Positions 918 through 50,381 of a DNA stretch of 64,000 nucleotides are shown one piece after another. This stretch comes from a bacterium (GTDB lineage: Bacteria; SM23-31), in the NCBI GenBank assembly GCA_965249485.1, contig CBDFMG010000005.1, forward strand, positions 97,337 through 161,336. Reading direction: 5' to 3'. Below the pieces are notes generated by a model. It worked only from the letters and a program-made list of their open reading frames with translations. It ran no database searches and was not told the DNA's origin. The position numbers and the translations under genes were made by a program. The stretch's first letter is position 1; each line of letters starts with the position of its first letter.

Positions 918-968
918 GTGAACTGCCACCGTACAAGTACGGTGGCCTTCTCGCCGTGTGATGATAAG
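918..968 (+). repeat. Type-1 dispersed hairpin repeat (~50 bp), copy 1 of 8
   Basis: Consensus GTGAACTGCCACCGTACAAGTACGGTGGCCTTCTCGCCGTGTGATTATAA. It contains the 9-bp-arm palindrome CCACCGTAC-WW-GTACGGTGG. Other copies are at about 31966-32016(+), 32962-33012(-), 34966-35008(+, partial), 43074-43108(+, partial), 44478-44529(+), 49022-49070(-) and 50293-50342(-). Confidence 0.8.
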
Positions 969-1029
969 CGTCACAAAATTTAATGGCAAAACGGCATACA
1001 GGATCAATAAGCATGCAGCAGAGGGGTTC

Positions 1030-1185
1030 TGCTAAATTCTGGTGATCAGATCATCAGAATTTAACAGTAGGGTTTGAAGAGTCATGTTTTTGACTTGGCA
1101 AATCCATACTGTTGCAAAATTTGATTTCAGAGAAGATCATAAATCTGTGTTGAAATGCGTTGATCACCAAAATTTACCAGAACCC
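1030..1185. mobile_element. MITE-like deletion derivative of the IS110-family element
   Basis: About 155 bp. Its right ~120 bp match the right end of the IS copy at 13700-13830. Its left end carries the degenerate palindromic TIR core ttctggtgatcagatcatcag. It has no ORF. Confidence 0.5.
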
Positions 1186-1261
1186 TCCAAAATAGCTTTC
1201 CACTATGAGATCAATGAATGGTGCATTTGGAATTATTGTTGCATTATACTTGAATTGCAAT

Positions 1262-1705
1262 TTACACAAATTCAGGAGTATCTATAACAATCGTTGTTTT
1301 TGGGGATGATATTTTGGCGATATACATTTCGATATTCCCAAATTTATCATACATTTCTTTAACCAAAGCAATTTTATCAATACCATGTTTTTGAAAATGA
1401 CCGTCCACAAATACCACGTATTTACCTACATATTCTGGATTTTGTAAATGGGTTTGTATAAAATCTTCAAATGCCCTTTTGTTTTTTGAATTTTTATTGT
1501 TTGCGATATCTTTTAATGAATTACTTTTCAAGAAATTTACAAAATAGTCCGCATAAGTACAAAAAAAGTTATCTTTAATATCAAACCATGATTGTATACT
1601 CTGTGGATAAAGTTCTGTTTTATTCAGATTCCATTTTTTAATTTCTGGGTTTTTTTGTTTAAACGAGCTTTCTTCTTTTAACTCATGCCAAATATTTTCA
1701 CTCAA
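1262..1705 (-). CDS. Hypothetical protein
   Basis: 147-aa ORF with no motif I recognise. The short overlapping ORF 1698-1895 may be an upstream extension. Confidence 0.35.
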   Translation of the reverse strand: MSENIWHELKEESSFKQKNPEIKKWNLNKTELYPQSIQSWFDIKDNFFCTYADYFVNFLKSNSLKDIANNKNSKNKRAFEDFIQTHLQNPEYVGKYVVFVDGHFQKHGIDKIALVKEMYDKFGNIEMYIAKISSPKTTIVIDTPEFV

Positions 1706-1854
1706 TTATATCATCACCAAATTTATTACGAAGATCTTGTATTTTAAATTTTAATGATTCTGTACCACTATTTGATGTATTAACAAGTTCTTCGACACTC
1801 TTTAAATCTAATTGAAAATTAACTACACCATCATGATCACCATCTGAATCATGA

Positions 1855-3230
1855 GTTTTTAGGAACTGGTAACTTTTAGTGATCGAGATCACCAAAATTT
1901 ATCCATGTGAATCATTTTTATACATTTCTTGCTTTTTCAAACATCAGGGCATTGCTCTCGCTAGAGAAGAATTCCAATCAAAAGATGTGCAGACATGTAT
2001 CCATACGAGACTATTCTCTCAATGCTATCTTCATCCTAGTTAGGATTATTCGCAGTTAACAGGCGAGGCTTGTCCCTCATAAATTTTAACGCGACTTGTA
2101 GCCCTAACTGTAATTTTGTACAAATTCCCTTCTCTCCTTTAGCATCCAATATATGACTCGCAGTATCTTTGATGCAGCAGCCACTGCAGCTTTGGATGTT
2201 CCTCTCTTCTTTTTTATTCTATTGTAAAACTTTGTAATGTCACTGTTCTTGGCATGTATTGCATGAGTGTGAATGCATTCTGTCAGAACCCATCTTAATG
2301 TCATGCTTCCTCTTTTTGTAATACTGCCATGATGTATGGTATCAGCTGAATTTCTGACTGATGGTACGACTCCTGCATATGCACACAGTTTGTGAGAGTC
2401 ATTGAATCTTTCAATGTCCGCAATCTCGGATGCAATGACTAGTGCAGAATAATTGCCAATTCCGGGAATCGAGTTTATCAGAATTGCATCAGGATTGGTC
2501 TTTACGGCAGCGTACACTTTTGAATTAATCTCTGCAATCTGCAAATTTAGATGGTTTATCTGTCGTAGGAATCCGTCTACTCTATAATCTCCTAATGCCC
2601 TGAGTCTTCTACAGTATATTTCAGTAAATGTAACTCCAGGAATTTTGATTCCACCCTGTAACAAAATCCCATGAATGGAATTCTTGATAGCAGTTCTCCA
2701 CTGGATGAGTTTCTTTCTGTATCTTACTAACTGGCGTTGTTGTACTATCTTTTTGTCTGGGACATAGCATTTGGCAATGTATCCACCACGTAGGAGATCT
2801 GCCAATATCCTGGCATCAATCTTGTCTGTCTTTTTCTTAGATGATGCAATTGCTTTTGTCAGATATGGGTTTGACAGTGTTACGTTTTTGTATTTCAATT
2901 GGTCTGTCAAAAATCTATATGTGTCATACCAGATTGATGAGGACTCCATGACGATGTTGGCAGAAATTGGGATATCTACAAAATGTTTCTTGATTGATTG
3001 GTGATTGTTTTCAACTTTGTCATTTTGTAATATGTTTCCGTCATTATCCATTATTGCTACTTGAAGAAACTTCTTGTGCAGGTCAATGCCCACATACATG
3101 GTCTTATTTGATTTGGTCCTAATCTGTTTCTTTGGACTTTTCTTGGATGATGCACTATAAGTTTTGGAACTATTAGATTCATCTGTAACGCTGTCTGATT
3201 TCCTTGCCTTGGTATTCACATATAGTTACC
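1855..3230 (-). mobile_element. IS110-family insertion sequence, copy 1, with its right end missing or diverged
   Basis: The left ~250 bp (1855-2100) are near-identical to 12325-12570 and include the palindrome ttttagtgatcgagatcaccaaaa. It contains the transposase CDS 2104-3219. Downstream sequence after 3220 no longer matches copy 2. Confidence 0.6.
2104..3219 (-). CDS. IS110-family (DEDD) transposase
   Basis: 371 aa. The N-terminus YVGIDLHKKFLQVAIMD is the IS110 RuvC-like start. The C-terminal HHGSITKRGSMTLRWVL segment is typical of IS110/IS1111. About 95% identical to ORF 12570-13685. Confidence 0.75.
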   Translation of the reverse strand: MNTKARKSDSVTDESNSSKTYSASSKKSPKKQIRTKSNKTMYVGIDLHKKFLQVAIMDNDGNILQNDKVENNHQSIKKHFVDIPISANIVMESSSIWYDTYRFLTDQLKYKNVTLSNPYLTKAIASSKKKTDKIDARILADLLRGGYIAKCYVPDKKIVQQRQLVRYRKKLIQWRTAIKNSIHGILLQGGIKIPGVTFTEIYCRRLRALGDYRVDGFLRQINHLNLQIAEINSKVYAAVKTNPDAILINSIPGIGNYSALVIASEIADIERFNDSHKLCAYAGVVPSVRNSADTIHHGSITKRGSMTLRWVLTECIHTHAIHAKNSDITKFYNRIKKKRGTSKAAVAAASKILRVIYWMLKERREFVQNYS

Positions 3231-5165: not shown

Positions 5166-6128
5166 CTATTGAAAATAACAAGAAACATCACCCGGTTTGC
5201 AATTGGCATCATACTTAACAACATCCAGCATAAAATCTAACACGTAGATTTCATCATTATACTGTATAATGTTTTGTGATAACAATACATCAGGTTTAGA
5301 ATATTTTTGTTCAAATAATCTGTCCAGATGACTCTGATATTCCAGATGTTCTGGAGTTGATATCGGAACGTCTTTGCTTTCAAGAAGCGCCTCTTTTAGC
5401 TTTGGCATTTTTTCCAAGTCCTCATCATGTAACGTCACAAATCCAGACAGATCAAAAAAAGTCTTGTTTCTGTACGATGTGGGATCAAATGATTCTATAG
5501 AAATCTGCGTATAGTCCCATTCCTCTGTAAACAAGTCAATGTCGATATGGTACTCTTGTCCATTGTAAATGATTGCCCGAGTAGATTCCCCCTCTCTGCC
5601 GGTCTTTTCAAAAGCTTTTTCCATCAAAATGCGTTTTAATTCATTCTTTTCTGTGGCATTTATTGCTGAGAATCCTTGAATTTTATTCAGGTTACTTTTG
5701 CCGATGTTGTCTATTGCTTGCAGTAATGCAGGAAATCTTTGGATTTCATCAGGACTTAACTGTACTGCTGGTCTGTACAATTCAATAAAGTCCATTTCAC
5801 TACGTCCTAGAAAAGAAGATTTCTCATATGGTAATGCCTCATTGACAAGAATCACAGCATCATTTTTTCTTTGGTTATCAAATAGTGTTGGCGCTTCTTT
5901 TTGCTCGTATCCTCCTGATGAAGTTCCTTTTGGAGTTACTGATTCACCAGTAAGATATCCTCTTTGGATAAGTTTTTCAACAGAATCCTCAAATACTGAA
6001 ACTACTTGACCTCTCAAATTGTACATTTTAATTTCAATCTTATCTGACGTACTATTGTCTGCAAAAGCAAAACCTGTCACCAAAAATAATGCTGCCAATA
6101 CAGAAATCATAATGCTGTTTATTTTCAT
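5166..6128 (-). CDS. Secreted hypothetical protein
   Basis: Signal peptide MKINSIMISVLAALFLVTGFAFA, 320 aa. Confidence 0.5.
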   Translation of the reverse strand: MKINSIMISVLAALFLVTGFAFADNSTSDKIEIKMYNLRGQVVSVFEDSVEKLIQRGYLTGESVTPKGTSSGGYEQKEAPTLFDNQRKNDAVILVNEALPYEKSSFLGRSEMDFIELYRPAVQLSPDEIQRFPALLQAIDNIGKSNLNKIQGFSAINATEKNELKRILMEKAFEKTGREGESTRAIIYNGQEYHIDIDLFTEEWDYTQISIESFDPTSYRNKTFFDLSGFVTLHDEDLEKMPKLKEALLESKDVPISTPEHLEYQSHLDRLFEQKYSKPDVLLSQNIIQYNDEIYVLDFMLDVVKYDANCKPGDVSCYFQ

Positions 6129-6182
6129 AATATTATGGAAAAATTTGATTTATTTAAAGATGAATAAAAAAAGAAAAAAGGG

Positions 6183-6413
6183 TTACAGACCTTCAGCGTC
6201 TGCGTAATCATTTATTGTGTCAATGCTCTCTTGAATGAATTCGGCAGTAAAATTATCTTCGTCAATAGACACACCACCAGCCATGATAGTATAATCACCA
6301 AGTAGTAGATCATTGTTGTGTCTTGCATCCATCAAGTGTCCTATCTCATGTGCTACAAGGATCTTTTGCTCATATGATGTACCATCATAAGTATTGTTGG
6401 AGTTATTGTCCAA
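6183..6413 (-). pseudogene. Metzincin-type zinc metalloprotease fragment
   Basis: A 76-aa ORF carries HEIGHLMDARH, i.e. HExxHxxxxxH. It is too short for a complete protease. Confidence 0.4.
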
Positions 6414-6570
6414 ACATGTATAATAATTCAGCAGAATTCCTTTTAAGGATTTAATCAGAATTTGAATGATAAAACAAACTGCACGTAGATGTCAATTAGG
6501 CAACTTTACAGGAACAAAAACTGTGAAAAATTCCTAAGAATCAATCCATTCTAAATTTTTTAGAATGTTT

Positions 6571-7587
6571 TTACCGCGTTCTGTAAGAAATAGTCGTAGT
6601 GCATTGATAATCTTCCGTGTTTTGATTCACAATGAATACCGATCCTTCATCACATAGTATGTTAGCCCATGTAACCTTTTTTGATTTAGACTGTTGTTGA
6701 TGATTTTGATTAATCACATCGACCAGCGAGAATCCTTCTCCTCCTGAGCTGCTGATGCTTTCTTCTGAGCTGCTTCCGCCGCCGTTTAGCACACTGCTGA
6801 TGCTTTCTTCTGAGCTTTCGCTATTGTTATCATCATTACCACTGTTGAATATGTCGGCCAGCGAGAATCCTTCTGAGCTGCCACTGCTGATGCTTTCTTC
6901 TGAGCTTCCGCCATTGTTATCATCATTACCACTGTTGAATATGTCAGCCAGCGAGAATCCTTCTGAGCTGCTTCCGCTATTGTTATCACTGTTGAATATG
7001 TCAGCCAATCCGTCACCAAAGTTGCTGACGCTGTTTAGCACACCGGCCAGCGAGAATCCTTCTGAGCTGCTTCCGCTATTGTTATCACTGTTGAATATGT
7101 CAGCCAATCCGTCACCAAAGTTGCTGACGCTGTTTAGCACACCGGCCAGCGAGAATCCTTCTGAGCTACTGCTTCCAGACTGTAAAGAGAAGCTTGACAA
7201 TTGTTTGGATCCTGTTACAAAGAACGTCTCAGTTACAGACAGGCCGCTGTCTGTCCGCACGGTGGCCTTGTATTTGCCGTTCATGCTGTAGTCATCTGCC
7301 AGATGTCCTACCTGAGATCCCCAGGTTCCCTCTGTCCACTGCCTTATCATGACTTCCTTGTTTTTGATTATGCTGCCAGAGGGATCAGTAATCACCAAAT
7401 AGTAATATCCGTCCTGCGGGTTGTAGTTTGATACCCACACATTCATGCGCAGCAGATCATCCTTGCTCACATCAATGGTGTTTCCAAGTGGAAAAGAAAT
7501 GGTAATTCCAGTCTGGCCATATGCTACTGTCGCAGGCATACAAAATATCATCGTCGTCACTATGATTGCCATAATGTACATCATCAT
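6571..7587 (-). CDS. Secreted Ser/Gly/Asn-rich protein with internal tandem repeats
   Basis: N-terminal hydrophobic signal. The unit SSEGFSLAGVLNSVSNFGDGLADIFNSDNNSG and variants repeat at least four times, reflected in ~100-bp DNA repeats over 6750-7200. Confidence 0.5.
   Translation of the reverse strand: MMMYIMAIIVTTMIFCMPATVAYGQTGITISFPLGNTIDVSKDDLLRMNVWVSNYNPQDGYYYLVITDPSGSIIKNKEVMIRQWTEGTWGSQVGHLADDYSMNGKYKATVRTDSGLSVTETFFVTGSKQLSSFSLQSGSSSSEGFSLAGVLNSVSNFGDGLADIFNSDNNSGSSSEGFSLAGVLNSVSNFGDGLADIFNSDNNSGSSSEGFSLADIFNSGNDDNNGGSSEESISSGSSEGFSLADIFNSGNDDNNSESSEESISSVLNGGGSSSEESISSSGGEGFSLVDVINQNHQQQSKSKKVTWANILCDEGSVFIVNQNTEDYQCTTTISYRTR
6760..7200. repeat. Intragenic tandem repeats of roughly 100-120 bp, about 4 units
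   Basis: The DNA motif cagcgagaatccttctgagctgcttccgc... recurs directly and gives the protein-level repeats in ORF 6571-7587. Confidence 0.55.
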
Positions 7588-12324: not shown

Positions 12325-13830
12325 CTTGGGTTCTGGTAACTTTTGGTGATCCGATCACCAAAATTTATCCATGTGAATCATTTTTATACATTTCTTGCTT
12401 TTTCAAACATCAGGGCATTGCTCTCGCTAGAGAAGAATTCCAATCAAAAGATGTGCAGACATGTATCCATACGAGACTATTCTCTCAATGCTATCTTCAT
12501 CCTAGTTAGGATTATTCGCAGTTAACAGGCGAGGCTTGTCCCTCATAAATTTTAACGCGACTTGTAGCCCTAACTATAATTTTGTACAAATTCTCTCCTT
12601 TCTTTTAACATCCAATAAATCACTCGCAAAATCTTTGATGCAGCAGCCACTGCAGCTTTGGATGTTCCTCTCTTCTTTTTTATTCTATTGTAAAACTTTG
12701 TAATGTCACTGTTCTTGGCATGTATTGCATGAGTGTGAATGCATTCTGTCAGAACCCATCTTAATGTCATGCTTCCTCTTTTTGTAATACTGCCATGATG
12801 TATGGTATCAGCTGAATTTCTGACTGATGGTACGACTCCTGCATATGCACACAGTTTGTGAGAGTCATTGAATCTTTCAATGTCCGCAATCTCGGATGCA
12901 ATGACTAGTGCAGAATAATTGCCAATTCCGGGAATCGAGTTTATCAGAATTGCATCAGGATTGGTCTTTACGGCAGCGTACACTTTTGAATTAATCTCTG
13001 CAATCTGCAAATTTAGATGGTTTATCTGTCGTAGGAATCCGTCTACTCTATAATCTCCTAATGCCCTGAGTCTTCTACAGTATATTTCAGTAAATGTAAC
13101 TCCAGGAATTTTGATTCCACCCTGTAACAAAATCCCATGAATGGAATTCTTGATAGCAGTTCTCCACTGGATGAGTTTCTTTCTGTATCTTACTAACTGG
13201 CGTTGTTGTACTATCTTTTTGTCTGGGACATAGCATTTGGCAATGTATCCACCACGTAGGAGATCTGCCAATATCCTGGCATCAATCTTGTCTGTCTTTT
13301 TCTTAGATGATGCAATTGCTTTTGTCAGATATGGGTTTGACAGTGTCACATTTTTATATTTTAATTCATCTGTCAGAAATCTATATGTGTCATACCAGAC
13401 TGATGAGGATTCCATGACAATATTGGCATGAAGTGGTATGTCTGTAAAATGTTTCTTGATCGATTGGTGAGTGTTCTCAACTTTGTTGTTTTGTAATACT
13501 TTGCCTTCATTATTCATTATTGCTACTTGAAGGAATTTCTTGTGCAGGTCAATGCCCACATACATGGTCTTCTTTGATTTATTCCTAATCTGTTTCTTTG
13601 GGCTTTTCTTGGAATACGATGAACTTTGAATCTTAGAATTAGATTCATTTCTTATGCTATCTGAATTCCTTCTCTCTATATTCACATATAGTTAACAACA
13701 ATATTTGAAGAGTCATGTTTTTGACTTGGCAAATCCATACTGTTGCAAAATTTGATTTCAGAGAAGATCATAAATCTGTGTTGAAATGCGTTGATCACCA
13801 AAATTTACCAGAACCCTTTAATGATAATTT
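12325..13830 (-). mobile_element. IS110-family insertion sequence, copy 2, apparently complete at about 1.5 kb
   Basis: Left end GGTTCTGGTAACTTTTGGTGATCCGATCACCAAAA. Right end GTTGATCACCAAAATTTACCAGAACCC, an inverted match of about 23 bp. Internal transposase CDS 12570-13685. Confidence 0.65.
12570..13685 (-). CDS. IS110-family (DEDD) transposase
   Basis: 371 aa, about 95% identical to ORF 2104-3219, with the same IS110 N- and C-terminal signatures. Confidence 0.75.
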   Translation of the reverse strand: MNIERRNSDSIRNESNSKIQSSSYSKKSPKKQIRNKSKKTMYVGIDLHKKFLQVAIMNNEGKVLQNNKVENTHQSIKKHFTDIPLHANIVMESSSVWYDTYRFLTDELKYKNVTLSNPYLTKAIASSKKKTDKIDARILADLLRGGYIAKCYVPDKKIVQQRQLVRYRKKLIQWRTAIKNSIHGILLQGGIKIPGVTFTEIYCRRLRALGDYRVDGFLRQINHLNLQIAEINSKVYAAVKTNPDAILINSIPGIGNYSALVIASEIADIERFNDSHKLCAYAGVVPSVRNSADTIHHGSITKRGSMTLRWVLTECIHTHAIHAKNSDITKFYNRIKKKRGTSKAAVAAASKILRVIYWMLKERREFVQNYS

Positions 13831-31956: not shown

Positions 31957-31962
31957 ATTTAA
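31957..31962 (-). promoter_or_regulatory. TATA box of tbp (ttaaat on the coding strand)
   Basis: Located about -28 from the ATG. A type-1 hairpin repeat (31966-32016) sits immediately upstream. Confidence 0.4.
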
Positions 31963-32046
31963 CGCTAACTGCCACCGTACAAGTACGGCGGTCTTCTCGC
32001 CGTGTGATTATAATTTCCCCTTAAATACAGTCTTCCTTTTTGTAGA

Positions 32047-32413
32047 TATGCTAGAAAAACGCAAAGAAGAATCAGATAGTATTGGAAAATACCAGGGCAT
32101 ACTTACCAGTGTAGTAATTGCTGCAATGATCATGTGGATTGCACCGATAATGATTCCGTATCTAGTCGGCCTTGAAGGCGAAGACGTAGACGGAAACCAG
32201 CTGTCTGGTGAAGATCTGTTGTTTGCGCCACCTTCAGATTCAGAGCTTCCCGAGGAGATATCTGACAGGATAAGCGGGCTGTTTGGAATCCTGATGTGGT
32301 TTGCAAGAATCGTTCTGATCTTTGGTGTCATAATTGCAGTAATCATACTGCGTATAAGACAAACAGAACCCCAGAACATGCCGATCGCTTTAAACGAAAA
32401 GTGCCTGTGTTGA
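32047..32413 (+). CDS. Small two-helix membrane protein, VirB2/TrbC-pilin-like in topology
   Basis: About 120 aa starting MLEKRKEE... Two hydrophobic helices are separated by an acidic loop. The gene lies just upstream of a VirB3-like and a VirB4-like gene. Confidence 0.35.
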
Positions 32414-32857: not shown

Positions 32858-32942
32858 ATATGTTGACCTTTGTGCAAATTTGCACAGAGGTTCTGTCAAC
32901 TGAGACTCGGCATTTGAGTCCGCCAAAGGCGCAGCAGAACTT
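32858..32942 (+). repeat. Type-2 dispersed repeat (~85 bp), copy a of 4, all in the same orientation
   Basis: Consensus CCTTTGTGCAAATTTGCACAGAGGTTCTGTCAACTGAGACTCGGCATTTGAGTCCGCCAAAGGCGCAGCAGAA. It contains the perfect 16-bp palindrome TGTGCAAATTTGCACA. Other copies are at about 39238-39300, 41176-41215 (partial) and 44541-44625. Confidence 0.8.
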
Positions 32943-33030
32943 CCGATGACAGAACTTAGTTTATCATCACACGGCGAGAAGACCGCCGTACAAGTACGGT
33001 GGCAGTTCACAGAACAGCTGACCCTTTTAA

Positions 33031-34956: not shown

Positions 34957-35133
34957 GGAAGAGGGTTCCGTACTTGTACGGTGGCCTTCTCGCCGTGTGA
35001 TTATAATTTACAAAAAATTGTACGGATTTCATCAAAAACAGACAAAAATGACACCGATATTCGCATTTCAAGTGACCCCAAATTTTTTGACTTTTCTGAA
35101 AAATGGGCAAAAATTTTGGCACTAGGCGTGGCT

Positions 35134-35177: not shown

Positions 35178-35370
35178 GAATTTCGCTATTAAAAACTTGG
35201 AAAAACAGAGAAATTTGTCTCCAAAATAGTAAAAGCATTCCAGTATAAATAAGTTTGGTTCTGGGTAATCTGGGCTCTGTCAAGTTAGCGGGTGTTAGCT
35301 AGAAATTTTATCCGTGTCAAGTGTCGGGTGTTTTAGTTCTTAAAATCAACCCTGTATGATGACATAATAC

Positions 35371-35457
35371 GCAGAGAGTGGGATTCGAACCCACGGTTCG
35401 GTAAAGAACTGATGCTCAAGAGACAACCACTCTAGACCTTACTAAGCAATCTCTGCA
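35371..35457 (-). tRNA. tRNA gene of ~87 nt with no encoded CCA; long variable arm or intron; anticodon not resolved
   Basis: Reverse complement reads GCAGAGA...GTGGGTTCGAATCCCAC TCTCTGC. That gives a perfect 7-bp acceptor stem and a canonical T-arm (GTGGG-TTCGAAT-CCCAC). A GTTC/GAAC extra stem fits a class-II variable arm. I could not fold the D and anticodon arms by eye. Confidence 0.6.
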
Positions 35458-35812
35458 TAAGTCCCAAAAATCATAATGCAATATAAAATACAATGTCCTA
35501 GTGGGATTCTTTACCTTTTTGCCTTCCCAACTAGAACGTTACTGTCTAATCGTGATTTGCAAGGGCACGACACACAAGACAGAATACCAAGAATCGAGGC
35601 ATTTTATATTCAAAAAATTCACATATAACTTTACCGTGCTGGAAATTACTGTAACATACTGTACGGTTCTGTAAAGTCTTCGTTTGTCATGAACCTGAAA
35701 CTATCAAAGACATCTCTTAGCTCGTCTTTTTTGTCGTGGAACTGCCAGACGCACTTTACTTGTTTCTCTAGTTGTTGTTGCTGCTCTTGTTTTTCTAGAT
35801 TCTTGAGGTGGC

Positions 35813-36031
35813 TCATTTGTTTTCAGTCTCTTTGATCCATTTTTTAGTCGCTTCGCGGATGTTGCGTTTTTTTGTGTCCACTTTCAACGGGATATAGATT
35901 CCATTGTCTGTGACGACGAGATCCAAAGAGTCTCCACGTTTAATGTTGTAGTTGTCCCGGATTACTCTTGGCAACAACAGAGCATGGGAATTTCCAACTT
36001 TCAGGACACTACTAGACAAAATAAGTGGCAT
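35813..36031 (-). CDS. AbrB/MazE/SpoVT-family swapped-hairpin DNA-binding protein
   Basis: LKVGNSHALLLPRVIRDNYNIKRGDSLDLVVTDNGIYI matches the AbrB/MazE pattern. The stop overlaps the ATG of a downstream 57-aa ORF (ATGA). Confidence 0.5.
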   Translation of the reverse strand: MPLILSSSVLKVGNSHALLLPRVIRDNYNIKRGDSLDLVVTDNGIYIPLKVDTKKRNIREATKKWIKETENK

Positions 36032-37338: not shown

Positions 37339-39372
37339 TTAATCAAGTGCGTCGACGTTTTTGGTATTTGCCTTGATTTGATTTCGCAGGTCTTTTTCAT
37401 CGATATGGCGTCTTTCTGACATCTCTGCGACGGCTCTTTGGCTTGCGACGTTTGGGTCAATACTGCGATCAGCAGACGTTATTGAAGATACTATCGAATC
37501 CATGTCTGCTTGTGTCGGATTATTTTGTTCCATCGCGGTATTAATCTTGCCCTTCCATTCTGCGATTTTTTCAGCTTGGGCTGGAGTTGTGTGTCCCTCG
37601 TTTTTTCTTTGTAATGTATTAATTGACTCATTCACAGCTTCAATGTTTTCATCTTTCGTCTTTGTATGATCATATTTCATTGGATTTCCATTTCCGTCTG
37701 TAATTCCAGACTGACCCATTTGTCCAACAAATCCAGGTGTCTGGTTTGCAGTGGGATCAGATGTAAACATCTCGTCAATTGCACCGTGCTGCTGCGCCTT
37801 GTCTGCGAACTGCGGACCTCCTCCACCTCCGCCACTTTGTGCAGCAGACTGCATGCCGTGGCCTACTGCTGCAGGATTCAGACCGCCACCCAAACCGGGA
37901 ACCATGCCGACACTGCCGTGAGACTGAAGGAGTCCGCCTCCAAAACCTCCCAGGCCACCCTTGAGCATGGCAAGGCCTCCGCTTCCCTTGTTTTTCATGG
38001 CGCCGCTCACACCGCCTGTGGCTGCCATGCCCGTAACCATTGCTGCTGACTGGACTGCAGAGGACACTGTCTGTGTCGCCATCTGCGTTGCAGACTTTAG
38101 TAAGGGAACCATCAGGACAGGCAGTGTGACTGCAAAGAACACGACACCGATTGCGGTAATCCACGTATGCACGTGATCAAAGCCGCCGCCTGTCTGCGGA
38201 GTCTGCAAAATTGCGCCGGCACCAACCACCAGGATCACAGAAGACATCAGCGGTATCAGCATCAGGGCGGGTATTGCGTCAATGAACTTGTTTGCAATCT
38301 CGTCGCCCTTTGGAATTAGCGACAGCATCAAAAAGAGTGGAAGTCCTGCAACAACCATCGCAGTCAGCATGTCAGTCATTATGCCGATGATCAAGGCCAT
38401 TATGAATATCTGAAGTCCGACAAGTGCCTTTGTCAGGCCGAGGAAAATGTTTGTAAAGGCGCCCTCTGTGCCCTTCTGGATAGAGTCCCCCAAATCACCC
38501 ATCCAGTTGCTTGCAGAGTCGATGTTGAGGCCCGTGCTGTTTTTCAAATCGGGAACATGCGTTGAGCGGAGCATCTGGCCAAAGACATACCTTACCTTAA
38601 AGTCGGGCTTGCAGATCTCCTCGTACCTGTGGCCGTGCAAGTCAACTATGTTGCTGTCAGTCTTCTGGCGGTCTGGAATGAACGGCGAGTCGTGATACTT
38701 TGACACCGCGAGAGACGGCGAATCATAATACTCGGCAGGGCACGGGTTCTGCTCGTCAAAGGAGTACAGTGGGTTTAGAATCCACCTGGATACGTCCTCG
38801 ATTACGAGCGTTGTTCCGTCCCAGAATGGGGGAAACACAAGAATCACAAGCAGAAACAGCACTCCCTTTGAGAGTATCTTGTTTGACGTGCCGGCCCTCA
38901 CAATTCCTGTCTCAGTTGATTCCAGCACTCGTGCGATTCCGGCGTAGATGAAAGCAATGACCATGGCACCAACTGCAATGTATCGCATCTGCACGTACGT
39001 GTCAAACATCTCGTTTCCGCCCTCACCTGTATCAGTTACCTCGTATCCGAATCCCGGCGTGACAAGTACGAGGTCAAGGTAGGTGCTCTCTATGATCCCT
39101 CCAAAGCTGATGACAACGCCGACTAGGGCAAATATCATGACAATCACGCCGCCAATCATTATCATTGATCCAAACGCCGGGCTTTTTGCTTGCATCACAC
39201 CAAAATTGCCGTTACAATATAAGGCCAATTTTGTCCTCGGTTCTGTCAACTGGCACTCAACATTCGAGTCCGCCAAAGGCGCAGCAGAACCAGAACCCCA
39301 ATGGAGTACAAAAAATGAGGGATGCCAAACCCGCCTTGATCGATAACTTTTTAATTTCCAAAAATAATACAA
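37339..39372 (-). CDS. VirB6/TrbL-like polytopic membrane protein with a Gly-rich region
   Basis: Multiple TM helices. A long Gly/Ala/Gln-rich segment resembles TrbL tails. Paralogous to ORF 43100-44428 (shared ...MTDMLTAMV...LPLFL..LSLIP and NP.YS.D...PCP... blocks). Confidence 0.45.
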   Translation of the reverse strand: MYYFWKLKSYRSRRVWHPSFFVLHWGSGSAAPLADSNVECQLTEPRTKLALYCNGNFGVMQAKSPAFGSMIMIGGVIVMIFALVGVVISFGGIIESTYLDLVLVTPGFGYEVTDTGEGGNEMFDTYVQMRYIAVGAMVIAFIYAGIARVLESTETGIVRAGTSNKILSKGVLFLLVILVFPPFWDGTTLVIEDVSRWILNPLYSFDEQNPCPAEYYDSPSLAVSKYHDSPFIPDRQKTDSNIVDLHGHRYEEICKPDFKVRYVFGQMLRSTHVPDLKNSTGLNIDSASNWMGDLGDSIQKGTEGAFTNIFLGLTKALVGLQIFIMALIIGIMTDMLTAMVVAGLPLFLMLSLIPKGDEIANKFIDAIPALMLIPLMSSVILVVGAGAILQTPQTGGGFDHVHTWITAIGVVFFAVTLPVLMVPLLKSATQMATQTVSSAVQSAAMVTGMAATGGVSGAMKNKGSGGLAMLKGGLGGFGGGLLQSHGSVGMVPGLGGGLNPAAVGHGMQSAAQSGGGGGGPQFADKAQQHGAIDEMFTSDPTANQTPGFVGQMGQSGITDGNGNPMKYDHTKTKDENIEAVNESINTLQRKNEGHTTPAQAEKIAEWKGKINTAMEQNNPTQADMDSIVSSITSADRSIDPNVASQRAVAEMSERRHIDEKDLRNQIKANTKNVDALD

Positions 39373-40557: not shown

Positions 40558-41176
40558 TGTCATAACATCTGATGAAATTATTTTCATTCATGAAATAATT
40601 GAAAAGAACTTTGGGTTGCCTAAAGGGCATATCAAAGTTGGCGACTTGGAAACATTACTTGAAAAAAGCAATGGCGTACCATTTTCAGAAAACCGTTATG
40701 ATTTGTTCATGCAAGCGTCAATTATTTTTGAAGGAATAGCAAGACTGCATATTTTTACAGACGGAAACAAAAGAACTGCATTAGAAGCAACAAGACAGTT
40801 TCTAAGTCAGAACAACCACGTTTTTATCATTCCACTAAGTGGAACCAATTTCATATACAATGTGGCAAGGAATGAAACCCATGATACTGACGGGTTAGTA
40901 TCTGACATTTCTGTATGGGTAAAAACGCATTCAGCAAAAATAAGTGAACGGTATAAAATTGCAGGTTTGCTGTTTTTACATCTTCTGCTGCCTTTGAAAC
41001 TGGTTAATTTTTTCTCAAAGATAAAACTAAATCGAATCAGCAGGTGGATACTATACAGATATTTAGAAAACGAGGATCCAAAAATAACAGAGCTCATGTT
41101 TTCAATCTATGAAAAACAGCTCGGTCTTTTTCAACCATCAGCAAAAGGGCATGAAAAACAAGACAAGACACCTTAG
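40535..41176 (+). CDS. Doc/Fic-family toxin
   Basis: HIFTDGNKRTALEA matches the Doc motif HxFx(D/N)GNKR. Confidence 0.6.
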   Translation: MKCFMTFNVITSDEIIFIHEIIEKNFGLPKGHIKVGDLETLLEKSNGVPFSENRYDLFMQASIIFEGIARLHIFTDGNKRTALEATRQFLSQNNHVFIIPLSGTNFIYNVARNETHDTDGLVSDISVWVKTHSAKISERYKIAGLLFLHLLLPLKLVNFFSKIKLNRISRWILYRYLENEDPKITELMFSIYEKQLGLFQPSAKGHEKQDKTP

Positions 41177-41377
41177 TGCAAATTTGCACAAAGGCTCTGT
41201 CAATCGATTCTCATCATTTGAACTTCAACTACACAATAGGCGTTTCCTGATATGACCATCCTCGTTCCTCTATGATTTCCTGTCATCCGTATTAATCCTT
41301 CACTGTTCTTTTTTCTGAACTGACATGCAGTACGTTCACCTTGTATTGCATCATTTGTGCGATAATGAATTGGCATG

Positions 41378-42736: not shown

Positions 42737-42834
42737 TTCCTGTCTAATTCTTTTTCTCAGCATCTGATTTGTCTCTTACAGTGCTGTGTTTCTCAACGTG
42801 ACTAGTTTGCCCAACTAATTCTACCAAACAAGCT

Positions 42835-43098
42835 TTGGATCAGAACATTTTGTATTATTTTATGAATAGGAATTGGAAAAAATACAACACATCACTAGTT
42901 AGACGTGGGGAAATCATGCTCTCCTTTGATGCCGTGGAACAGTGGGGTACAGAACTCAAGGAGATGAACCACAAAAAGGAAGGACGTCAGTATATCTATC
43001 CTGAATCCTTCATGGAGGCACTAGGGGAAGTGACGCTTGTGGAGAGTGCAAAGCATTCAATGAAACAGGAAGAGGCCACCGTACTTGTACGGTGGTAG
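42835..43098 (+). pseudogene. N-terminal fragment of an IS5-family transposase, truncated by a type-1 hairpin repeat
   Basis: ...SFDAVEQWGTELKEMNHKKEGRQYIYPESFMEALG matches the N-terminal region of ORF 11239-12075. The reading frame runs into the repeat (ccaccgtacttgtacggtgg) and stops. Confidence 0.5.
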
Positions 43099-43099
43099 T

Positions 43100-44428
43100 T
43101 CACTCTTCACCTTTACCACCAGCAGCACCGCCGTCTTTCTCAGGACTGGACATAGCGCTACCCTCGTGCGCCGTTATTCCGCCTTTGATGCCACCAGACA
43201 CGCTGCCCTTGAACCCACCTTTTGCGTAACCCTGTATTGCGCCCTTTCCTGCCATGGCAGTGATGAATAACGCCGTAGTTACTGCCGATGTCATCACCTG
43301 CATTGTAGATCCTACAACTGATGAGAGCAGTGGCACCATTAGCATCGGAATGGATACTGCAAAAAATACCACGCCAAGCGATGCAATCCAGACATATATC
43401 AGAGTGGTGTCAAAGCCTGCAATTATCTCACCTGTGTTTGCAGTGCCTGCCGATGCGATAAAGCTCGCACCGACACTGATTACAATTGCAGAGACCAGCG
43501 GTATGAGGTACAGTCCCGGCAGTGCCTGCAGGAACTTTGCGACGATTTTGTCAAAGCGCGGAATCAGCGACAGTGCCAGGAACAGCGGCAGTGACACAAT
43601 CACCATCGCAGTCAGCATGTCAGTCATCATGCTGATTATCATGGACAGCAGTGAAACGTTGATCACTATTATTGCCTGTGCAAACCCGAAAAACGTGTCT
43701 GCCAGCACGTTTGTAAACGCGCCGGATATCTGATTGGTGATCCATTCCAGCGTGTTTGCGCCCTCGGGCAGTTCATATGATGCGGTGCCTGCCATCTGCT
43801 GTATGACATAGTGGACCTTAAAGTCAGGCCTGCACACTATCTCTGCCTTTTTGATGTCGGTTCCAAAAAAGTCATACGCCGTTCCGTCCTTGTCATACTT
43901 TGAGTCGTTGTATTCGCGGATTATTTTTTGATCAGACCAGTCATCAGGACACGGCGAGTCGGGGTCGTATGAATAGTTCGGGTTTAGCACCCATACTGCT
44001 GCAATCTCCATTCCGTCAGCTACTGCATCCCATATGAATGGAAACAGCGCAATCAGAAATATGATCATGACACATCTTGAGATTAGCTTTCCTCCCAGCC
44101 CCTTTTGTACGGTTGAGACTTCGGACTGCTCAAAAAATTTCAGCAGTACTGCAACTACGACGACCACTGCAATCAGGATCAGTGCCAGAAATCGCATCTG
44201 CGTGAATGTCTCAAATATGTAGTTTCCATGCTCTGTGCCGTCATTTTGTATGGAATACTCAAAGACCGGCAGTGTGATCAGCTGAAGCGTGTACGCGCTG
44301 TCCATCATGTCGCCTATGTCGTTTGCAATATTGGAAAAGGTAATCTGTATGAGTATTATGGCAAGTATGGTTACTGCAGCGTCTATCAGCTCTGTGATGA
44401 TTGCCGGGTGTTGTTTTTTCAACAACAC
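43100..44428 (-). CDS. VirB6/TrbL-like polytopic membrane protein, paralog of 37339-39372
   Basis: 442 aa with multiple TM helices. Shares conserved blocks with 37339-39372. Lys/Gly-rich tail. Confidence 0.45.
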   Translation of the reverse strand: MLLKKQHPAIITELIDAAVTILAIILIQITFSNIANDIGDMMDSAYTLQLITLPVFEYSIQNDGTEHGNYIFETFTQMRFLALILIAVVVVVAVLLKFFEQSEVSTVQKGLGGKLISRCVMIIFLIALFPFIWDAVADGMEIAAVWVLNPNYSYDPDSPCPDDWSDQKIIREYNDSKYDKDGTAYDFFGTDIKKAEIVCRPDFKVHYVIQQMAGTASYELPEGANTLEWITNQISGAFTNVLADTFFGFAQAIIVINVSLLSMIISMMTDMLTAMVIVSLPLFLALSLIPRFDKIVAKFLQALPGLYLIPLVSAIVISVGASFIASAGTANTGEIIAGFDTTLIYVWIASLGVVFFAVSIPMLMVPLLSSVVGSTMQVMTSAVTTALFITAMAGKGAIQGYAKGGFKGSVSGGIKGGITAHEGSAMSSPEKDGGAAGGKGEE

Positions 44429-44658
44429 CCAAGGCAGTATTCATTATAAGGAGCGTGGATTTCTCAAAGAGGATTCCGTGAACTGCCGCCGTACAAGTAC
44501 GGCGGCCTTCTCGCCGTGTGATTATAAATTGTCATCCTGCATGTTGGCCTTTGTGCAAATTTGCACAGAGGTTCTGTCAACTGAGACTCGGCATTTGAGT
44601 CCGCCAAAGGCGCAGCAGAATCCAGGGGCCTTATAAACAACTACACATCTGATGGGTA

Positions 44659-46155
44659 TTGTTTGGATGGAAGAAATCAGAAAAAGAAGAGTCCGTAAAG
44701 TACAAGCTATCGCACATGGATGTTGACGTTACAGGGCTTGACATAGTGGAGGAATACAAGGTAGGCAAGGTAAAAGTCTACATCACGTCAGACTCAAGAT
44801 ACCTGGTAAAAGAGCCGCCTATAGGCGACTCTGCAGTGAATTTGTACAATACCATCATCGACAAAATTAACATGGGAGTCGAGCTAACAGACGCGGATAA
44901 GGACCCCAAAGTTCTTGCCGACAAGCTGGAAAAGGCATTTTGGGATACTGCAAAGAGACTTGAAAGGTATGACGAGGCGACACGGATGTTTCCTGACCTG
45001 ACGTACTACATTCACCGCGAGATGCTAGGTTATGGGATTATTGATCCGCTGATGAAGGATCCTGCAATCGAGGATATCCTGTGCTCTGCATACGACAGAA
45101 ACGTCCGCGTGATACACAAAAGATATTCCGGCATTCACCACAGCCTTGAGACAAACATTGCATTTGAGAGCGTCACTGAGATGGAGAGGTTCATCCAGAA
45201 GGTGTATAGTAAGACAGGTACGGAGCCCACAGAATCAAGACCGATGTCTGTCACACACATGGCAGACGGCTCCAGAATCTCTGCCACCTTTGGAAAACAG
45301 GTGACACAGCCTGGCCCGATAATTGCGATACGAAAGTTTCCAACAGAGCCGTTTACGATAACCGACATGCTAAAGACAGGGCACCTGTCATCTCAGATGG
45401 CAGCATACATCTGGACTATGCTTGATGCAAAGGCAGTGGGGCTGGTAATCGGTGTCACAGGATCCGGCAAGACTACCCTGCTTTCTGCGTTTGTATCGAT
45501 GATGAACCCGGGGTGGAGGATACTCACAATTGAGGATACGCTGGAACTGCAGATACCGCATGAGGACTGGGTTAGGGCAAACACCAGAAAAAGCTACGGA
45601 ATGCTTTCAGAGAAATTCGACATACCCATCAGAAGCCTGATTGACATGTCACTTACACAGAGGCCGGACTACGAGATTGTCGGCGAAATCAGACTGGATG
45701 ACATGGATGCGCTGTTTCAGAGTGTCGGCACCGGACACGGCGGGTTGACAAGCTTTCACGCATCAACCCCAGGGGGCGCACTGACTCGAATGAGGGGAAA
45801 CAAGATCAGCGAAGGCGAGCTTGCACTGCTGTGGTTTACGGTGCACTCTGCCAGCATAACAAGGGACGGAGTCGACACAAGAAAGGTGACAGATATCTCA
45901 GAGATAGTGCCAGACGAGATGACCGGCACAGTTGCAGTTAATAACATATTCAAGTATGATATTTTTAAGGACAAGTTTGTGCAGAACCAGTCACTTGAGG
46001 AATCATACAGATACCAGGAGGCCTTGCAGATATGCGGAATCCTAGATCCAAAAGAAGACATGAAAAAAAGAATAGCCCTCCTTGAGCAGTGTGTCAGCAA
46101 GGACGTCTCTGACGTGCACAAGGTCTTTGAGATTCTTAGAAGATATTACGAATGA
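44659..46155 (+). CDS. VirB11/FlaI/GspE-family secretion ATPase
   Basis: Walker A GVTGSGKTTLL. Asp box ILTIEDTLEL. His-box-like RPDYEIVGEIR. 498 aa. Confidence 0.7.
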   Translation: MFGWKKSEKEESVKYKLSHMDVDVTGLDIVEEYKVGKVKVYITSDSRYLVKEPPIGDSAVNLYNTIIDKINMGVELTDADKDPKVLADKLEKAFWDTAKRLERYDEATRMFPDLTYYIHREMLGYGIIDPLMKDPAIEDILCSAYDRNVRVIHKRYSGIHHSLETNIAFESVTEMERFIQKVYSKTGTEPTESRPMSVTHMADGSRISATFGKQVTQPGPIIAIRKFPTEPFTITDMLKTGHLSSQMAAYIWTMLDAKAVGLVIGVTGSGKTTLLSAFVSMMNPGWRILTIEDTLELQIPHEDWVRANTRKSYGMLSEKFDIPIRSLIDMSLTQRPDYEIVGEIRLDDMDALFQSVGTGHGGLTSFHASTPGGALTRMRGNKISEGELALLWFTVHSASITRDGVDTRKVTDISEIVPDEMTGTVAVNNIFKYDIFKDKFVQNQSLEESYRYQEALQICGILDPKEDMKKRIALLEQCVSKDVSDVHKVFEILRRYYE

Positions 46156-47877: not shown

Positions 47878-48465
47878 TCAGTCAAGCCACTGCGAGGTAT
47901 TCCGATAAACACGCGTCCCAGTGCCATCAAGATTCAATATATGTGAATCTGAATCAATTGAGTGGCTCGTGCTGGCTCCCATGTGTCTTATCTGATAAGA
48001 TGAACTGTCATATGCGTAGCCGTCTTCGGTAGTATAGTCAAACTCTGTGGTTAGCCTGTCAAGGTCAGGCAAACCGCCCTTGGATTCAAACTCATAGTCT
48101 GCGTAAAGGCTGGGAATGTCAATCTCTTTTGTCGCAGCACCGTCAAATACGTATGCAATTTTCCTGACATTGTTGTCAACATCCAAGTATGGCCGAAAAC
48201 CATCAACCTCAAATCCAGACGGCTTGTGTAATATGACATTACCGTTTACATCCAAGTCAATGATTCTTGATTGATCAGTAATTGCAGATGATATGCTTTC
48301 AAGGGCTTTTTCAGCCACATCCCCGTTCTCATCATTACTTACATGAACCTCCTCTACTGGAAACATGTTGCCAAGCTCAGTGACAATAAAGATGTCCTCT
48401 GCAAAGGCAGGGGATATCAGAATTACAGGCAACGCTAATGCTAGCAGGCCGTACAAAGTCCTCAT
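47878..48465 (-). CDS. Secreted hypothetical protein
   Basis: Signal peptide MRTLYGLLALALPVILISPAFA. Confidence 0.45.
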   Translation of the reverse strand: MRTLYGLLALALPVILISPAFAEDIFIVTELGNMFPVEEVHVSNDENGDVAEKALESISSAITDQSRIIDLDVNGNVILHKPSGFEVDGFRPYLDVDNNVRKIAYVFDGAATKEIDIPSLYADYEFESKGGLPDLDRLTTEFDYTTEDGYAYDSSSYQIRHMGASTSHSIDSDSHILNLDGTGTRVYRNTSQWLD

Positions 48466-49143
48466 ACAATCAAATCATCAACATGTATTAGCAACCAAAT
48501 ATTGCTGCACACGTGCAGGTTCATCATCCAGAATGCGAAGCACCATTCCGTATCTGTTGGAGTTTTTCTCATATACGATAGTGATTCTCTCCCTGCCAAA
48601 AACGGTACAGGACAGTACAGAATCAGCATTTAGCAACACTGTCTCCATTCCGGAAATCTCTACTTTGATGATGCCATTCTCATCAATGTCAAGCATCCCT
48701 TTTTTTCCATATAATGAAACCGAAAAAGATTCCATACCAGAGATTGACAGATATTATTTAACGCTGTGAGCGGGGGTTCTGTCAAGTTCTAGTCACCTGA
48801 AGTGTGGATCTTCTCCGTGTTAAGAGTCGTCACCTAATCTGAGATATCATTGCAAAACTATCATTTGAAATTAAGGTGCCTGGCACCCCCCTGTCCAAAG
48901 TGTTCAAACCATGCGACAAAAGGAAGACTAAACTTCCAGTGGTGTGTCAGGCATGTTTGTATTGTAATACGCATATAATACGGTTATGCTGCATCATCGT
49001 CAGAAATATCTCTTAATTTTGTAATACCACGGCGAGAAGGCCACCGTACTTGTACGGCGGCAGTTCACTACATCTTCCTCAGACATGTTTTTCTCATTCA
49101 TAATCCGTGCGACATGCCCTGATACCTGTAAGATTCAACCGTC

Positions 49144-49353
49144 TCAATTTCTTCTTTCTTGTCTGGGTTTTTTTAATTTCATCGGCTCTCTATCTTTCGC
49201 TAATTCATTGTAAATATCCACTCTTCGAGGCCTGTTCCAGTATGCAGATTTGCATTTAGGACACAAGGCTGGTTCTTCTCTTATTTTTAATCTTGGTACC
49301 CAAGCATGACCGCATCTGTCACATTGAAAAGCTGGTAATGTTGTTTTTCCCAC
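49144..49353 (-). CDS. Small zinc-ribbon protein
   Basis: CDRCGHAW...CPKCKSAYW, two CxxC pairs, 69 aa. Confidence 0.4.
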   Translation of the reverse strand: MGKTTLPAFQCDRCGHAWVPRLKIREEPALCPKCKSAYWNRPRRVDIYNELAKDREPMKLKKPRQERRN

Positions 49354-49554
49354 GTCTTGTAATTACTTTACACTGTAATAAGTGTTGGTTTACTTAATAG
49401 AGTAACCTTTAACTATTACATTGCCCATATTACTATCATGCAAACTGACAAGATTCGGGCAATGAGAAAATATATGGTGACGTTTTGCACTGAAGATGTC
49501 GACTGCCGTCTGACTGAGACGTTAAACCAGACCACCACAGGAGGCTGGTAACCC

Positions 49555-50232
49555 ATGTTTGGGAGGAAGAAAAAAAACGTGGGCTTGCCACCAATTCCAG
49601 ACGAACTAAACTATTACAAACAACCCCCAAAAAGATCGTACGAGCTACGGCCAATCACGGTTGTTGATACGAGTTCCTTGTTTTCATGCTTTAACAGCAG
49701 TGAAAAGCAGTCAGACCAGATAGCAGAACACATGGAACTTTTGCATCCTGATGAGGTACACATTCCTGATGTGGTGGTGGAAGAGTTTGACAGCATTTAC
49801 AAAAATGGCGACAGAAGGTTTGCAGCAGACGGGCAAAGGCGCAGCCTGTTTGCAAAGTTTGTAGAAGAGCCCCCAAAGCTCAACGGAGGAGTGCCACGAG
49901 ATCTTGCAGAGCTGGAAGGCAAGGTAGAGGCAATGTACAATGAAATTTACCGTACACAGCTTCCACGTGTCGAGGGATGGGCAAACAGAAAGCAAAAAAA
50001 GCCAGCAGATATTATGGATTTGCAGATAAACAAAAACGACTGGCGAATACTTGCAGAGGCATCATACATTGCAGGCAAGCACAAGAATGGCGTAAAGATC
50101 ATGACCCTTGATATTGACTTTGTACTTTTTGCACCCGAAATATACGAGGTACTTGATGTCAGGATTGAAGACTGTAATATGTTCGGACAGATGAATCCGA
50201 CGACAGCATCACTTGAAGGAAAGCACCACTAG
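49555..50232 (+). CDS. Hypothetical protein, possibly PIN-like
   Basis: RPITVVDTSSL near the N-terminus and acidic residues later. The assignment is weak. Confidence 0.3.
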   Translation: MFGRKKKNVGLPPIPDELNYYKQPPKRSYELRPITVVDTSSLFSCFNSSEKQSDQIAEHMELLHPDEVHIPDVVVEEFDSIYKNGDRRFAADGQRRSLFAKFVEEPPKLNGGVPRDLAELEGKVEAMYNEIYRTQLPRVEGWANRKQKKPADIMDLQINKNDWRILAEASYIAGKHKNGVKIMTLDIDFVLFAPEIYEVLDVRIEDCNMFGQMNPTTASLEGKHH

Positions 50233-50381
50233 ACTAATAGAGTGAATATTTTAATTTCCATGAATCAGGAAGCCAACGACTTTATCATTTTTTATAATCA
50301 CACGGCGAGAAGGCCACCGTACTTGTACGGTGGTGGTTCACTGTATCGTTTTTTTAAATTTAAAGTCATGATAAAATGGTT

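Follow-up and report, generated by a model that had tools for sequence, protein, structure and literature searches.

Dispersed hairpin repeats in a 64-kb Nitrosopumilus window are probable terminal-only derivatives of an IS200/IS605-family element

The stretch analysed here (64,000 nt of contig CBDFMG010000005.1, assembly GCA_965249485.1; hereafter the window) carries a dispersed family of ~50-bp repeats, each built around one hairpin. These repeats are very probably 'terminal-only' miniature derivatives (palindrome-associated transposable elements, PATEs) of an insertion sequence (IS) of the IS200/IS605 family that is resident in this Nitrosopumilus lineage.

The repeat family and its parent element

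Repeat finding recovers, as families D8 and D9, all eight copies that an earlier note on the window had listed from the letters alone. The 50-mer consensus has three matching sites at ≤3 mismatches and the 20-nt palindrome core CCACCGTACNNGTACGGTGG has seven at ≤2, with 0.00 expected for either in dinucleotide-preserving shuffles. The family is real and, as the note had it, a dispersed, hairpin-containing, non-coding mobile-element family. The window holds six complete units, two partial copies and one 14-nt stub (Table 1). Aligned on one strand, the copies read TTAT-[A/C]ATCACACGGCGAGAAG[A/G]-CC[A/G]CCGTAC-WW-GTACGG[T/C]GG-[C/T]AGTTCAC, with unrelated sequence on either side; the unit proper is the 46 nt that lie 3' of TTAT, formed by an 18-nt left end, a 20-nt hairpin and an 8-nt right end. 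Taking the strand that reads TTAT...GTTCAC as that of each copy, the nine copies split 5:4, which gives no orientation bias, and every one is intergenic. The placement in both orientations and between genes that the earlier note described is therefore upheld, and its statement that copies truncate open reading frames (ORFs) does not apply in any meaningful sense. No two of the miniature copies (minis) are identical. One reading frame of the repeat encodes a peptide (ELPPYKYGGLLAV, followed by a stop) that we considered as a shared protein tail and rejected, as it is the opposite strand of the TnpB C terminus and right end of the element described below. The sole Rfam match in the window is a tRNA, and the full IS has no Rfam match even at E ≤ 1.

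The hairpin is conserved as a structure. Folded as single-stranded DNA, the two strands of the consensus 50-mer reach −10.6 and −11.2 kcal/mol (z about −4); among single copies, copy 6 reaches −12.1 kcal/mol (z about −4) and copy 2, whose stem is mismatched, only −6.9. Compensatory changes occur in 4/9 stem pairs (for example, CCGCC/GGCGG and CAAC/GTTG), and the covariation score of the stem is reached in only 1 of 500 shuffles.

Searching one genome per species with the 21-mer TACGGYGGYCTTCTCGCCGTG gives 12 matches in a single Nitrosopumilus sp. metagenome-assembled genome (MAG; CBDFGF01), spread over at least six separate regions, and three further chance matches in GC-rich bacteria without the palindrome. 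Within that MAG, the repeat halves are mostly separated by ~1.35–1.6 kb and are the two ends of one element, with a left end (LE) TTAT^[A/C]ATCACACGGCGAGAAGA-hairpin-ATGAATCG... and a right end (RE) ...CATTCAATGAAACAAGAAGAGG-hairpin-TAGTTCAC^ (^ marks a junction). Read in the tnpB sense, the parent runs from TTAT through LE ([A/C]ATCACACGGCGAGAAG[A/G], hairpin CCACCGTAC-TT-GTACGGTGG, then ATGAATCG...), tnpA and tnpB to RE (...AAGAAGAGG, the same hairpin as in LE, then TAGTTCAC). Both ends carry an identical subterminal 20-nt palindrome, separated from the terminus by 18 nt on the left and 8 nt on the right, and there is no inverted repetition between the termini. The 1.67-kb form (locus L011, 5127–6794) has divergent tnpA and tnpB genes, encoding a 133-aa Y1 transposase (5174–5575; a Y1_Tnp match in Pfam at E = 1e-38, in which HIH and SYYVGT motifs can be seen) and a 395-aa TnpB (5602–6789; Pfam HTH_OrfB_IS605, OrfB_IS605 and Cas12f1-like_TNB) whose TAG stop is located inside the right end. 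A 1.4-kb form has lost tnpA and retains tnpB only. All nine full-length left-end hairpins are perfect and many of those in minis are imperfect.

Full-length copies are also present in chromosomal contigs L023–L025 of the ENA metagenome ERZ26167216; one of them, in L025, is a second tnpA plus tnpB copy (Y1_Tnp at 7063–7455). Other contigs of this metagenome (L014 and L019–L022) are 98–99% identical to parts of the window, and from the 98–100% identity of shared regions we infer that the window and the parent-bearing sequences (MAG and contigs) belong to the same cell line. By the defining features that can be tested in sequence, the parent is an IS200/IS605-family element. Of the two architectures that the earlier note had named, that of IS200/IS605 subterminal hairpins is the one borne out, the repeat halves being the ends of a tnpA/tnpB IS. 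Its observation that the window lacks a Y1 transposase holds (tblastn, best E = 0.9), and the enzyme that it proposed to look for elsewhere is found in the related MAG and the ENA metagenome, inside an element whose ends are the repeat halves. The note had also held that its reading would fall if the copies were parts of one larger known element; in a sense they are, as fused termini of a larger IS.

Integration junctions and loss of the element core

One orthologous site captures the step from element to mini. Contigs L024 and L025 are collinear at 98.8% identity, and L025 (like MAG locus L008) has the full 1.4-kb element where L024 has the 46-nt unit alone. The contigs differ here by an indel of 1326 nt whose limits are the two hairpins, and the shared flanks are identical (...GACTATTACATTTAT^ and ^TCAAGGTTGTAAGG, also given as ...ACATTTAT^ and ^TCAAGGTTG). 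The 46-nt unit can arise in place, through deletion between identical LE and RE hairpins. As these 20-nt hairpins are identical direct repeats ~1.35 kb apart, the core would be lost by repeat-mediated deletion, presumably through slippage or homologous recombination, which would leave one hairpin between 18 nt of LE and 8 nt of RE, still 3' of its TTAT. Two other minis have junctions of different make: that of L005 joins an LE-type left arm to a variant RE-type right arm, and that at L014 6644 (orthologous to window copy 8) has its crossover in AGAAG just 5' of the hairpin. This heterogeneity implies independent collapses.

Separately, three MAG loci (L002 3804–3839, L005 2447–2482 and L005 6397–6432) hold 36-nt perfect palindromes, GTGAACTACCACC....GGTGGTAGTTCAC, with the right-end terminus on both sides of one hairpin. 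These represent a third derivative of the same IS, for which inverted-mode recombination at the palindromic hairpin is the presumed origin.

The flanks of full-length and miniature copies locate the target. Where L025 and L011 carry the left end, an intact rmlA-like gene reads ...TATATTTAT^CAAGATG...; because TTAT is present in that intact gene, the left-end TTAT is host sequence. The L025 right end joins TATGGCTGATTG, which in the intact gene follows ...CCATTAT^, 701 nt further on. The right junctions of window copy 8 and its L014 counterpart abut sequences that follow AATTTAT^ and TGATTAT^, respectively, in a paralogous reference. All three right-end junctions for which there is an uninterrupted reference (L025 against the rmlA-like gene of L024, copy 8 and L014 P2) thus abut post-TTAT sequence, and TTAT occupies only 0.5–0.9% of positions. 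No duplicated flanks are seen at the junctions checked. Among the loci compared there is no simple filled and empty pair with a single TTAT; left and right junctions sit on different TTATs, with 7, 10, 49 or 701 nt absent between them. Such split junctions may reflect two nearby insertions that recombined, or a TnpA that joined the right end to a neighbouring TTAT. The junctions bear the mark of TnpA-type insertion, 3' of TTAT and with no duplication. The parent would insert by Y1-TnpA single-strand 'peel-and-paste', a single-stranded DNA chemistry taken from knowledge of the family, and the hairpin would be kept as the structure that TnpA recognises.

Two candidate empty sites were rejected. 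Locus L001 (TTTAT^CAAGATGCA) resembles an unfilled version of L011 (TTTAT^IS^TT+CAAGATGCA), but the same right flank occurs with another left flank in L023 and the L011 left flank with a third right flank in L025; the IS copies have therefore recombined. Window position 60157 matches the left flank of the L012/L022 insertion, but has TCAT and a different right flank, and is a rearrangement junction.

Several observations weigh against derivation of the window repeats from this parent. The window has neither a full-length parent nor tnpA, but just a fragment of another TnpB, unrelated to this one (32% identity); the parent is present only in the related MAG and the metagenome contigs. Collapse in place is seen at one site only. 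Five of the six complete window minis end in CAGTTCAC, whereas all 12 distinct full-length right ends have TAGTTCAC, in which TAG is the tnpB stop; the window minis (with CAG) have therefore not each collapsed from the sampled parent variant. Some comparison contigs have low coverage (2.9x for L019, 3.5x for L022), such that single-base differences may be sequencing errors. The sole filled and empty pair inside the window, that of copy 2 and a paralogous arm, is also no clean TTAT insertion. Minus 46 nt, the copy-2 arm has the same length as the empty arm, and their coding parts are identical at 385/385 positions; yet the 5 nt before the insertion point are ATTAT in the filled arm (32010–32014) and TTCCT in the empty arm (29591–29595), three differences. 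The TTAT target, or transposon-adjacent motif (TAM), is destroyed in the empty paralog, and this loss could represent escape from re-insertion or from TnpB cleavage.

An ICE-like island, rival readings and known counterparts

Segment 15001–50300 of the window has a GC content of 0.44, against 0.35 in its flanks, and its gene content (Table 1) marks it as an island resembling an integrative and conjugative element (ICE), heavily rearranged among metagenome variants. ICE-like islands of this type have been reported for Thaumarchaeota (PMC6563490). Seven of the nine copies fall within 31.9–50.3 kb, inside this higher-GC segment, and the variants differ at them. L019 has mini, 480 nt (a 98-aa gene) and mini at the site of the single window copy 3, and in L014 one mini takes the place of copy 7, a PIN gene and copy 8 of the window. 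In L020 one mini joins the left flank of copy 8 to the right flank of copy 3, which places the PIN gene directly upstream of the VirB4-like gene. At the copy-8 locus the ends in different variants are joined to four different TTATs within ~70 nt. Full-length copies exchange flanks too, with A-B, A-C and D-B combinations all occurring. As 46–50-nt portable homologies, minis mark breakpoints of deletions and rearrangements among island variants. The repeats 'bracket' type IV secretion system (T4SS) genes, in the wording of the earlier note, because they are portable homologies where modules are lost or exchanged, and scars of this kind at module borders help to explain why island variants differ by whole modules.

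The same distribution could be read as function, with minis serving the island as att or recombination sites, as oriT-like sites of nicking, or as cassettes (operator, terminator or promoter) that set the limits of T4SS gene modules. Their concentration in the ICE-like segment and their position at borders of modules that differ between variants fit this idea, as do the three of six complete copies whose right end precedes a same-strand ORF start by 20–50 nt; with a TATA-like TTATAA at the left end, an effect of minis on transcription of their neighbours is possible. We nevertheless regard dedicated island sites as very unlikely, as the same sequences are IS ends in chromosomal neighbourhoods of glycosylation and ribosomal-protein genes unrelated to the ICE, are found in either orientation and on the promoter side of genes, on their 3' side or between convergent ones, give no Rfam match and are not adjoined by the integrase gene. 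Less credible still is a family of repetitive extragenic palindromic (REP) elements, or their paired form (REPIN), maintained by a domesticated REP-associated tyrosine transposase (RAYT, or TnpA_REP). RAYTs are relatives of the IS200/IS605 TnpA, and the repeats are indeed short intergenic units with one GC-rich hairpin each. Both flanks of that hairpin are nonetheless the termini of a tnpA/tnpB IS; the units are solitary, with no inverted doublets and no GTAG-type head, and number at least four minis in the fetched loci of a 1.95-Mb MAG rather than hundreds. The associated Y1 protein lies inside a mobile element, beside tnpB, and there is no RAYT match, so that the REP/BIME-like label of the earlier note does not stand. 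Its MITE-like label fares no better in the classical sense (miniature inverted-repeat transposable element), since the termini (AATCAC... and ...GTTCAC) do not form an inverted repeat and no target duplication is present in the flanks.

A further proposal concerns the mode of spread and is compatible with an IS605 origin: the single-hairpin 46-nt unit may itself be mobile, excised and re-inserted as single-stranded DNA by a Y1 TnpA acting in trans, with most window copies having arrived as minis. We hold this as a tentative possibility, on the unlikely side. Complete minis keep TTAT 18 nt 5' and TCAC 8 nt 3' of the hairpin; the derived CAG variant common to five of six window minis is absent from all full-length right ends sampled; no ICE-variant contig has a full-length copy at any window mini site; and the junctions at the copy-8 locus sit at four different TTATs among the variants. 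In Haloquadratum, six strain-specific insertions of a 52-bp terminal-only PATE are on record (PMC3119063). Set against this, the IS608 TnpA dimer binds one hairpin per monomer and forms a robust synaptic complex with both LE and RE (PMC3201880), whereas here both cleavages would depend on one hairpin and one guide tetranucleotide. The compared loci include no clean pair of mini-filled and TTAT-empty sites, the lack of identical minis lends no support to a recent burst, hairpins are imperfect in many minis but in none of the full-length left ends, and gene conversion among neighbouring minis could account for the shared CAG. More doubtful again is the bolder version in which the 46-nt unit is a complete natural Y1 transposase substrate and TnpA, acting on such units and nearby TTATs, catalyses cassette exchange as well as site-specific deletions within a thaumarchaeal conjugative island. 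If true, this would be about the smallest transposable unit known; the reshuffled modules would be the PIN gene, the 98-aa gene and the VirB4 neighbourhood; and the four-TTAT joins at copy 8, together with the 7-, 10-, 49- and 701-nt TTAT-to-TTAT deletions flush with the ends, would be TnpA footprints and not the outcome of repeated insertion plus homologous recombination.

Derivation by fusion of IS termini, the reading that we prefer, has a close archaeal precedent. In Haloquadratum walsbyi the 1500-bp ISHwa23 gives rise to a 52-bp 'terminal-only' PATE, and HqIRS46 shows core deletions (Dyall-Smith et al. 2011, PMC3119063); the remark in the earlier note that such elements are poorly described in archaea is thus mistaken, as these are the same thing. 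The window unit has the features of a terminal-only PATE, being 46 nt long, too short for a transposase, flanked by LE and RE termini, and free of terminal inverted repeats and target duplication. Shared with Haloquadratum are a ~50-bp non-coding unit made of fused IS605-type termini around a single near-terminal palindrome, deletion between two direct-repeat palindromes (19–22 bp), the lack of terminal inverted repeats and target duplication, a 4–5-nt targeting sequence at the 5' end, and a palindrome that lies farther from the 5' terminus than from the 3' terminus. The differences are that the host here is Nitrosopumilus, a mesophilic, ammonia-oxidising marine thaumarchaeon and not a haloarchaeon, that the sequence is unrelated, that copies are concentrated in an ICE-like island and mark breakpoints between its variants, and that the parent keeps an intact Y1 tnpA in the population. 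Process and class are already known from Haloquadratum, and no new kind of system is revealed.

The geometry of the ends resembles that of IS608, in which TTAC lies 19 nt 5' of the left hairpin, outside the element, and TCAA 10 nt 3' of the right hairpin, inside it, each read by a 4-nt guide at the 5' foot of its hairpin (PMC3201880). The present element has TTAT 18 nt 5' of the hairpin foot, outside, and a TCAC that ends 8 nt 3' of it, inside. The element shares with IS608 and ISDra2 a Y1 HUH TnpA together with TnpB, subterminal hairpins that are not inverted repeats, and absence of target duplication. It differs in its motifs (TTAT/TCAC, as read from sequence, against TTAC/TCAA in IS608 and TTGAT in ISDra2), in the divergent arrangement of tnpA and tnpB, and in LE and RE hairpins that are identical perfect palindromes, which makes core deletion easy. 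In Geobacillus stearothermophilus, the PATE-like minimal elements of ISGst families are likewise gene-less IS200/IS605 derivatives; they have kept both ends (LE and RE) of the tnpB elements resident there, and a single tnpA is presumed to mobilise them in trans (Meers et al. 2023, PMC10055086); unlike the unit described here, they often still encode an omega-RNA (PMC10055086). The 46-nt unit cannot encode a guide RNA scaffold because all that it retains of the right end is the last hairpin and 8 nt. REP/REPIN-RAYT systems are similar in having short intergenic hairpin repeats and a Y1 HUH enzyme related to TnpA, but REPs are not termini of tnpB-containing IS and form inverted doublets, in hundreds of copies, alongside a single-copy RAYT, none of which is found here.

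In JGI metagenomes a mini-specific 32-mer has no match, and the 21-mer left-end pattern only four chance matches, in contigs of 59–76% GC without the palindrome; neither the left-end nor the right-end pattern has a match in IMG/VR. The family is therefore narrowly distributed at this sequence identity, and at ≥95% TnpB identity it is confined to MAG CBDFGF01 and ENA sample ERZ26167216. TnpB relatives at 70–80% identity are common in Nitrosopumilaceae (1490 matches, E < 1e-40). Our literature search found no paper on TnpB or on PATE- or MITE-type derivatives in Nitrosopumilus, and a 2019 survey of thaumarchaeal mobile elements lists IS200/IS605 copies and never mentions MITEs. The loci described here provide the exact ends, a TTAT TAM and a TCAC right-end motif for an active-looking Nitrosopumilus tnpA/tnpB family. 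They also indicate that IS605 elements with identical LE and RE hairpins collapse readily to ~46-nt scars, which in archaeal genome annotation resemble REPs or regulatory hairpins, and this bears on the interpretation of TnpB/omega-RNA loci.

Individual copies and neighbouring elements

Table 1. Positions of repeat copies and of associated features in the window.
Feature	Position	Strand	Description
Copy 1	918–967	-	Complete: TTAT, 18-nt left end, 20-nt hairpin, 8-nt right end CAGTTCAC
VirD4/TraG-like gene	14928–17846
T2SSF-like gene	17836–19710
Paralogous 'empty' site of copy 2	29585–29604	+	GGGGAATTCCT^GTTAAATTG; insertion point 29595/29596
Copy 2	31964–32013	-	Complete mini; right-end terminus altered to CAGTTAGC (last 5 nt TTAGC, not TTCAC)
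Copy 3	32961–33010	+	Complete mini, upstream of VirB4-like gene
VirB4-like gene	33031–34956
Copy 4	34957–35006	-	Partial: TTAT, left end, hairpin with degenerate right arm; right-end terminus missing
tRNA-Lys(CTT)	35369–35457	-	89 nt, in ICE-like region
TrbL-like gene (weak)	37339–39372
Copy 5	43025–43103	+	79-nt true right end with the last 27 tnpB codons; TAG stop inside GGTGG-TAG-TTCAC
Copy 6	44478–44527	-	Complete mini; stem with compensatory variant CCGCC...GGCGG
T2SSE ATPase gene	44659–46155
Copy 7	49019–49068	+	Complete mini; TTGT in place of TTAT
Copy 8	50292–50341	+	Complete mini between convergent genes
Tyrosine integrase gene	54801–55538		Adjoins rpsB, beyond the island in the lower-GC flank
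Left-end stub	62199–62212	+	14 nt, TTATAATCACACGG (TTAT+AATCACACGG)

The flanks of copy 1 have no counterpart among the fetched loci. Copy 2 sits 20 nt upstream of the start codon of a TBP-like ORF (31398–31943, - strand), in agreement with the tbp promoter location given in the earlier note. The same is true of its placement of copies 3 and 4 on either side of the VirB4-like gene; copy 4 begins immediately past the stop codon and is conserved in L009, L019, L020, L021 and L022. Copy 5 is no mini-element. It adjoins an IS5 fragment (42782–43026), and the ORF that ends in it is a chimera of that fragment and the tnpB 3' end. Copy 6 occupies the divergent region between ORF 43100–44428 (- strand) and the T2SSE-type ATPase gene (+ strand). 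Copies 5 and 6 do flank that ORF, which had been called VirB6-like; it has no Pfam match, and its one link is an 88-nt stretch, 77% identical, shared with the weak TrbL-like ORF. Copies 7 and 8 bracket the PIN gene. The fragment placed near 62197, said to be 16 nt long, is a real left-end remnant of 14 nt, which an IS5-like element truncates with its terminal repeat; an exact 14-mer has a chance expectation of ~5e-4 in 128 kb.

Several other elements lie near the copies. The 5' part of the TBP-like gene forms an inverted duplication at 29547–32058 (arms 29596–29980 and 31579–31963). Between the arms are a 210-aa ORF (30672–31304) and a fragment of a second, different TnpB (29981–30629) fused in frame to the TBP N terminus; L019 has the same arrangement. 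Ends of a second IS605-family element type are a left-end-like hairpin with a long loop at ~31330–31395, followed by GGGCTTTCTCGCCCTGATACTGTAAAA, and a right-end-like remnant at ~35600–35825 beside tRNA-Lys. A full 399-aa TnpB copy occupies L019 8168–9403, at the equivalent of window position ~35683. The tRNA-Lys(CTT) gene, 360 nt from copy 4, probably contains an intron because of its length, and could be an old integration site. An 80-nt repeat with palindrome TGTGCAAATTTGCACA (32860–32939, 39210–39289, 41170–41221 and 44541–44620; two copies 99% identical) lies upstream of several T4SS-like genes and beside minis 3 and 6, in differing relative orientations, and it may serve the island as an operator or promoter module.

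A second palindromic family, with core TTCTGGTGATCAGATCACCAGAA, occurs at 51821–51989, 55599–55767 and 62244–62365, and also at 1025, 4937, 12042, 12329, 62342 and 63423. The DNA methylase and integrase genes lie between two direct copies of 169 nt that are 98% identical, and shorter copies are the terminal repeats of IS5-like (DDE_Tnp_1) elements; the TTCTGGTGATCAGATCACCAGAA repeats are probably MITE-like derivatives of such an element. Two IS110-family transposase genes (2104–3219 and 12570–13685) lie 10,466 nt apart with flanks ~97% identical, and ORF 6571–7587 contains tandem repeats of 90–99 nt.

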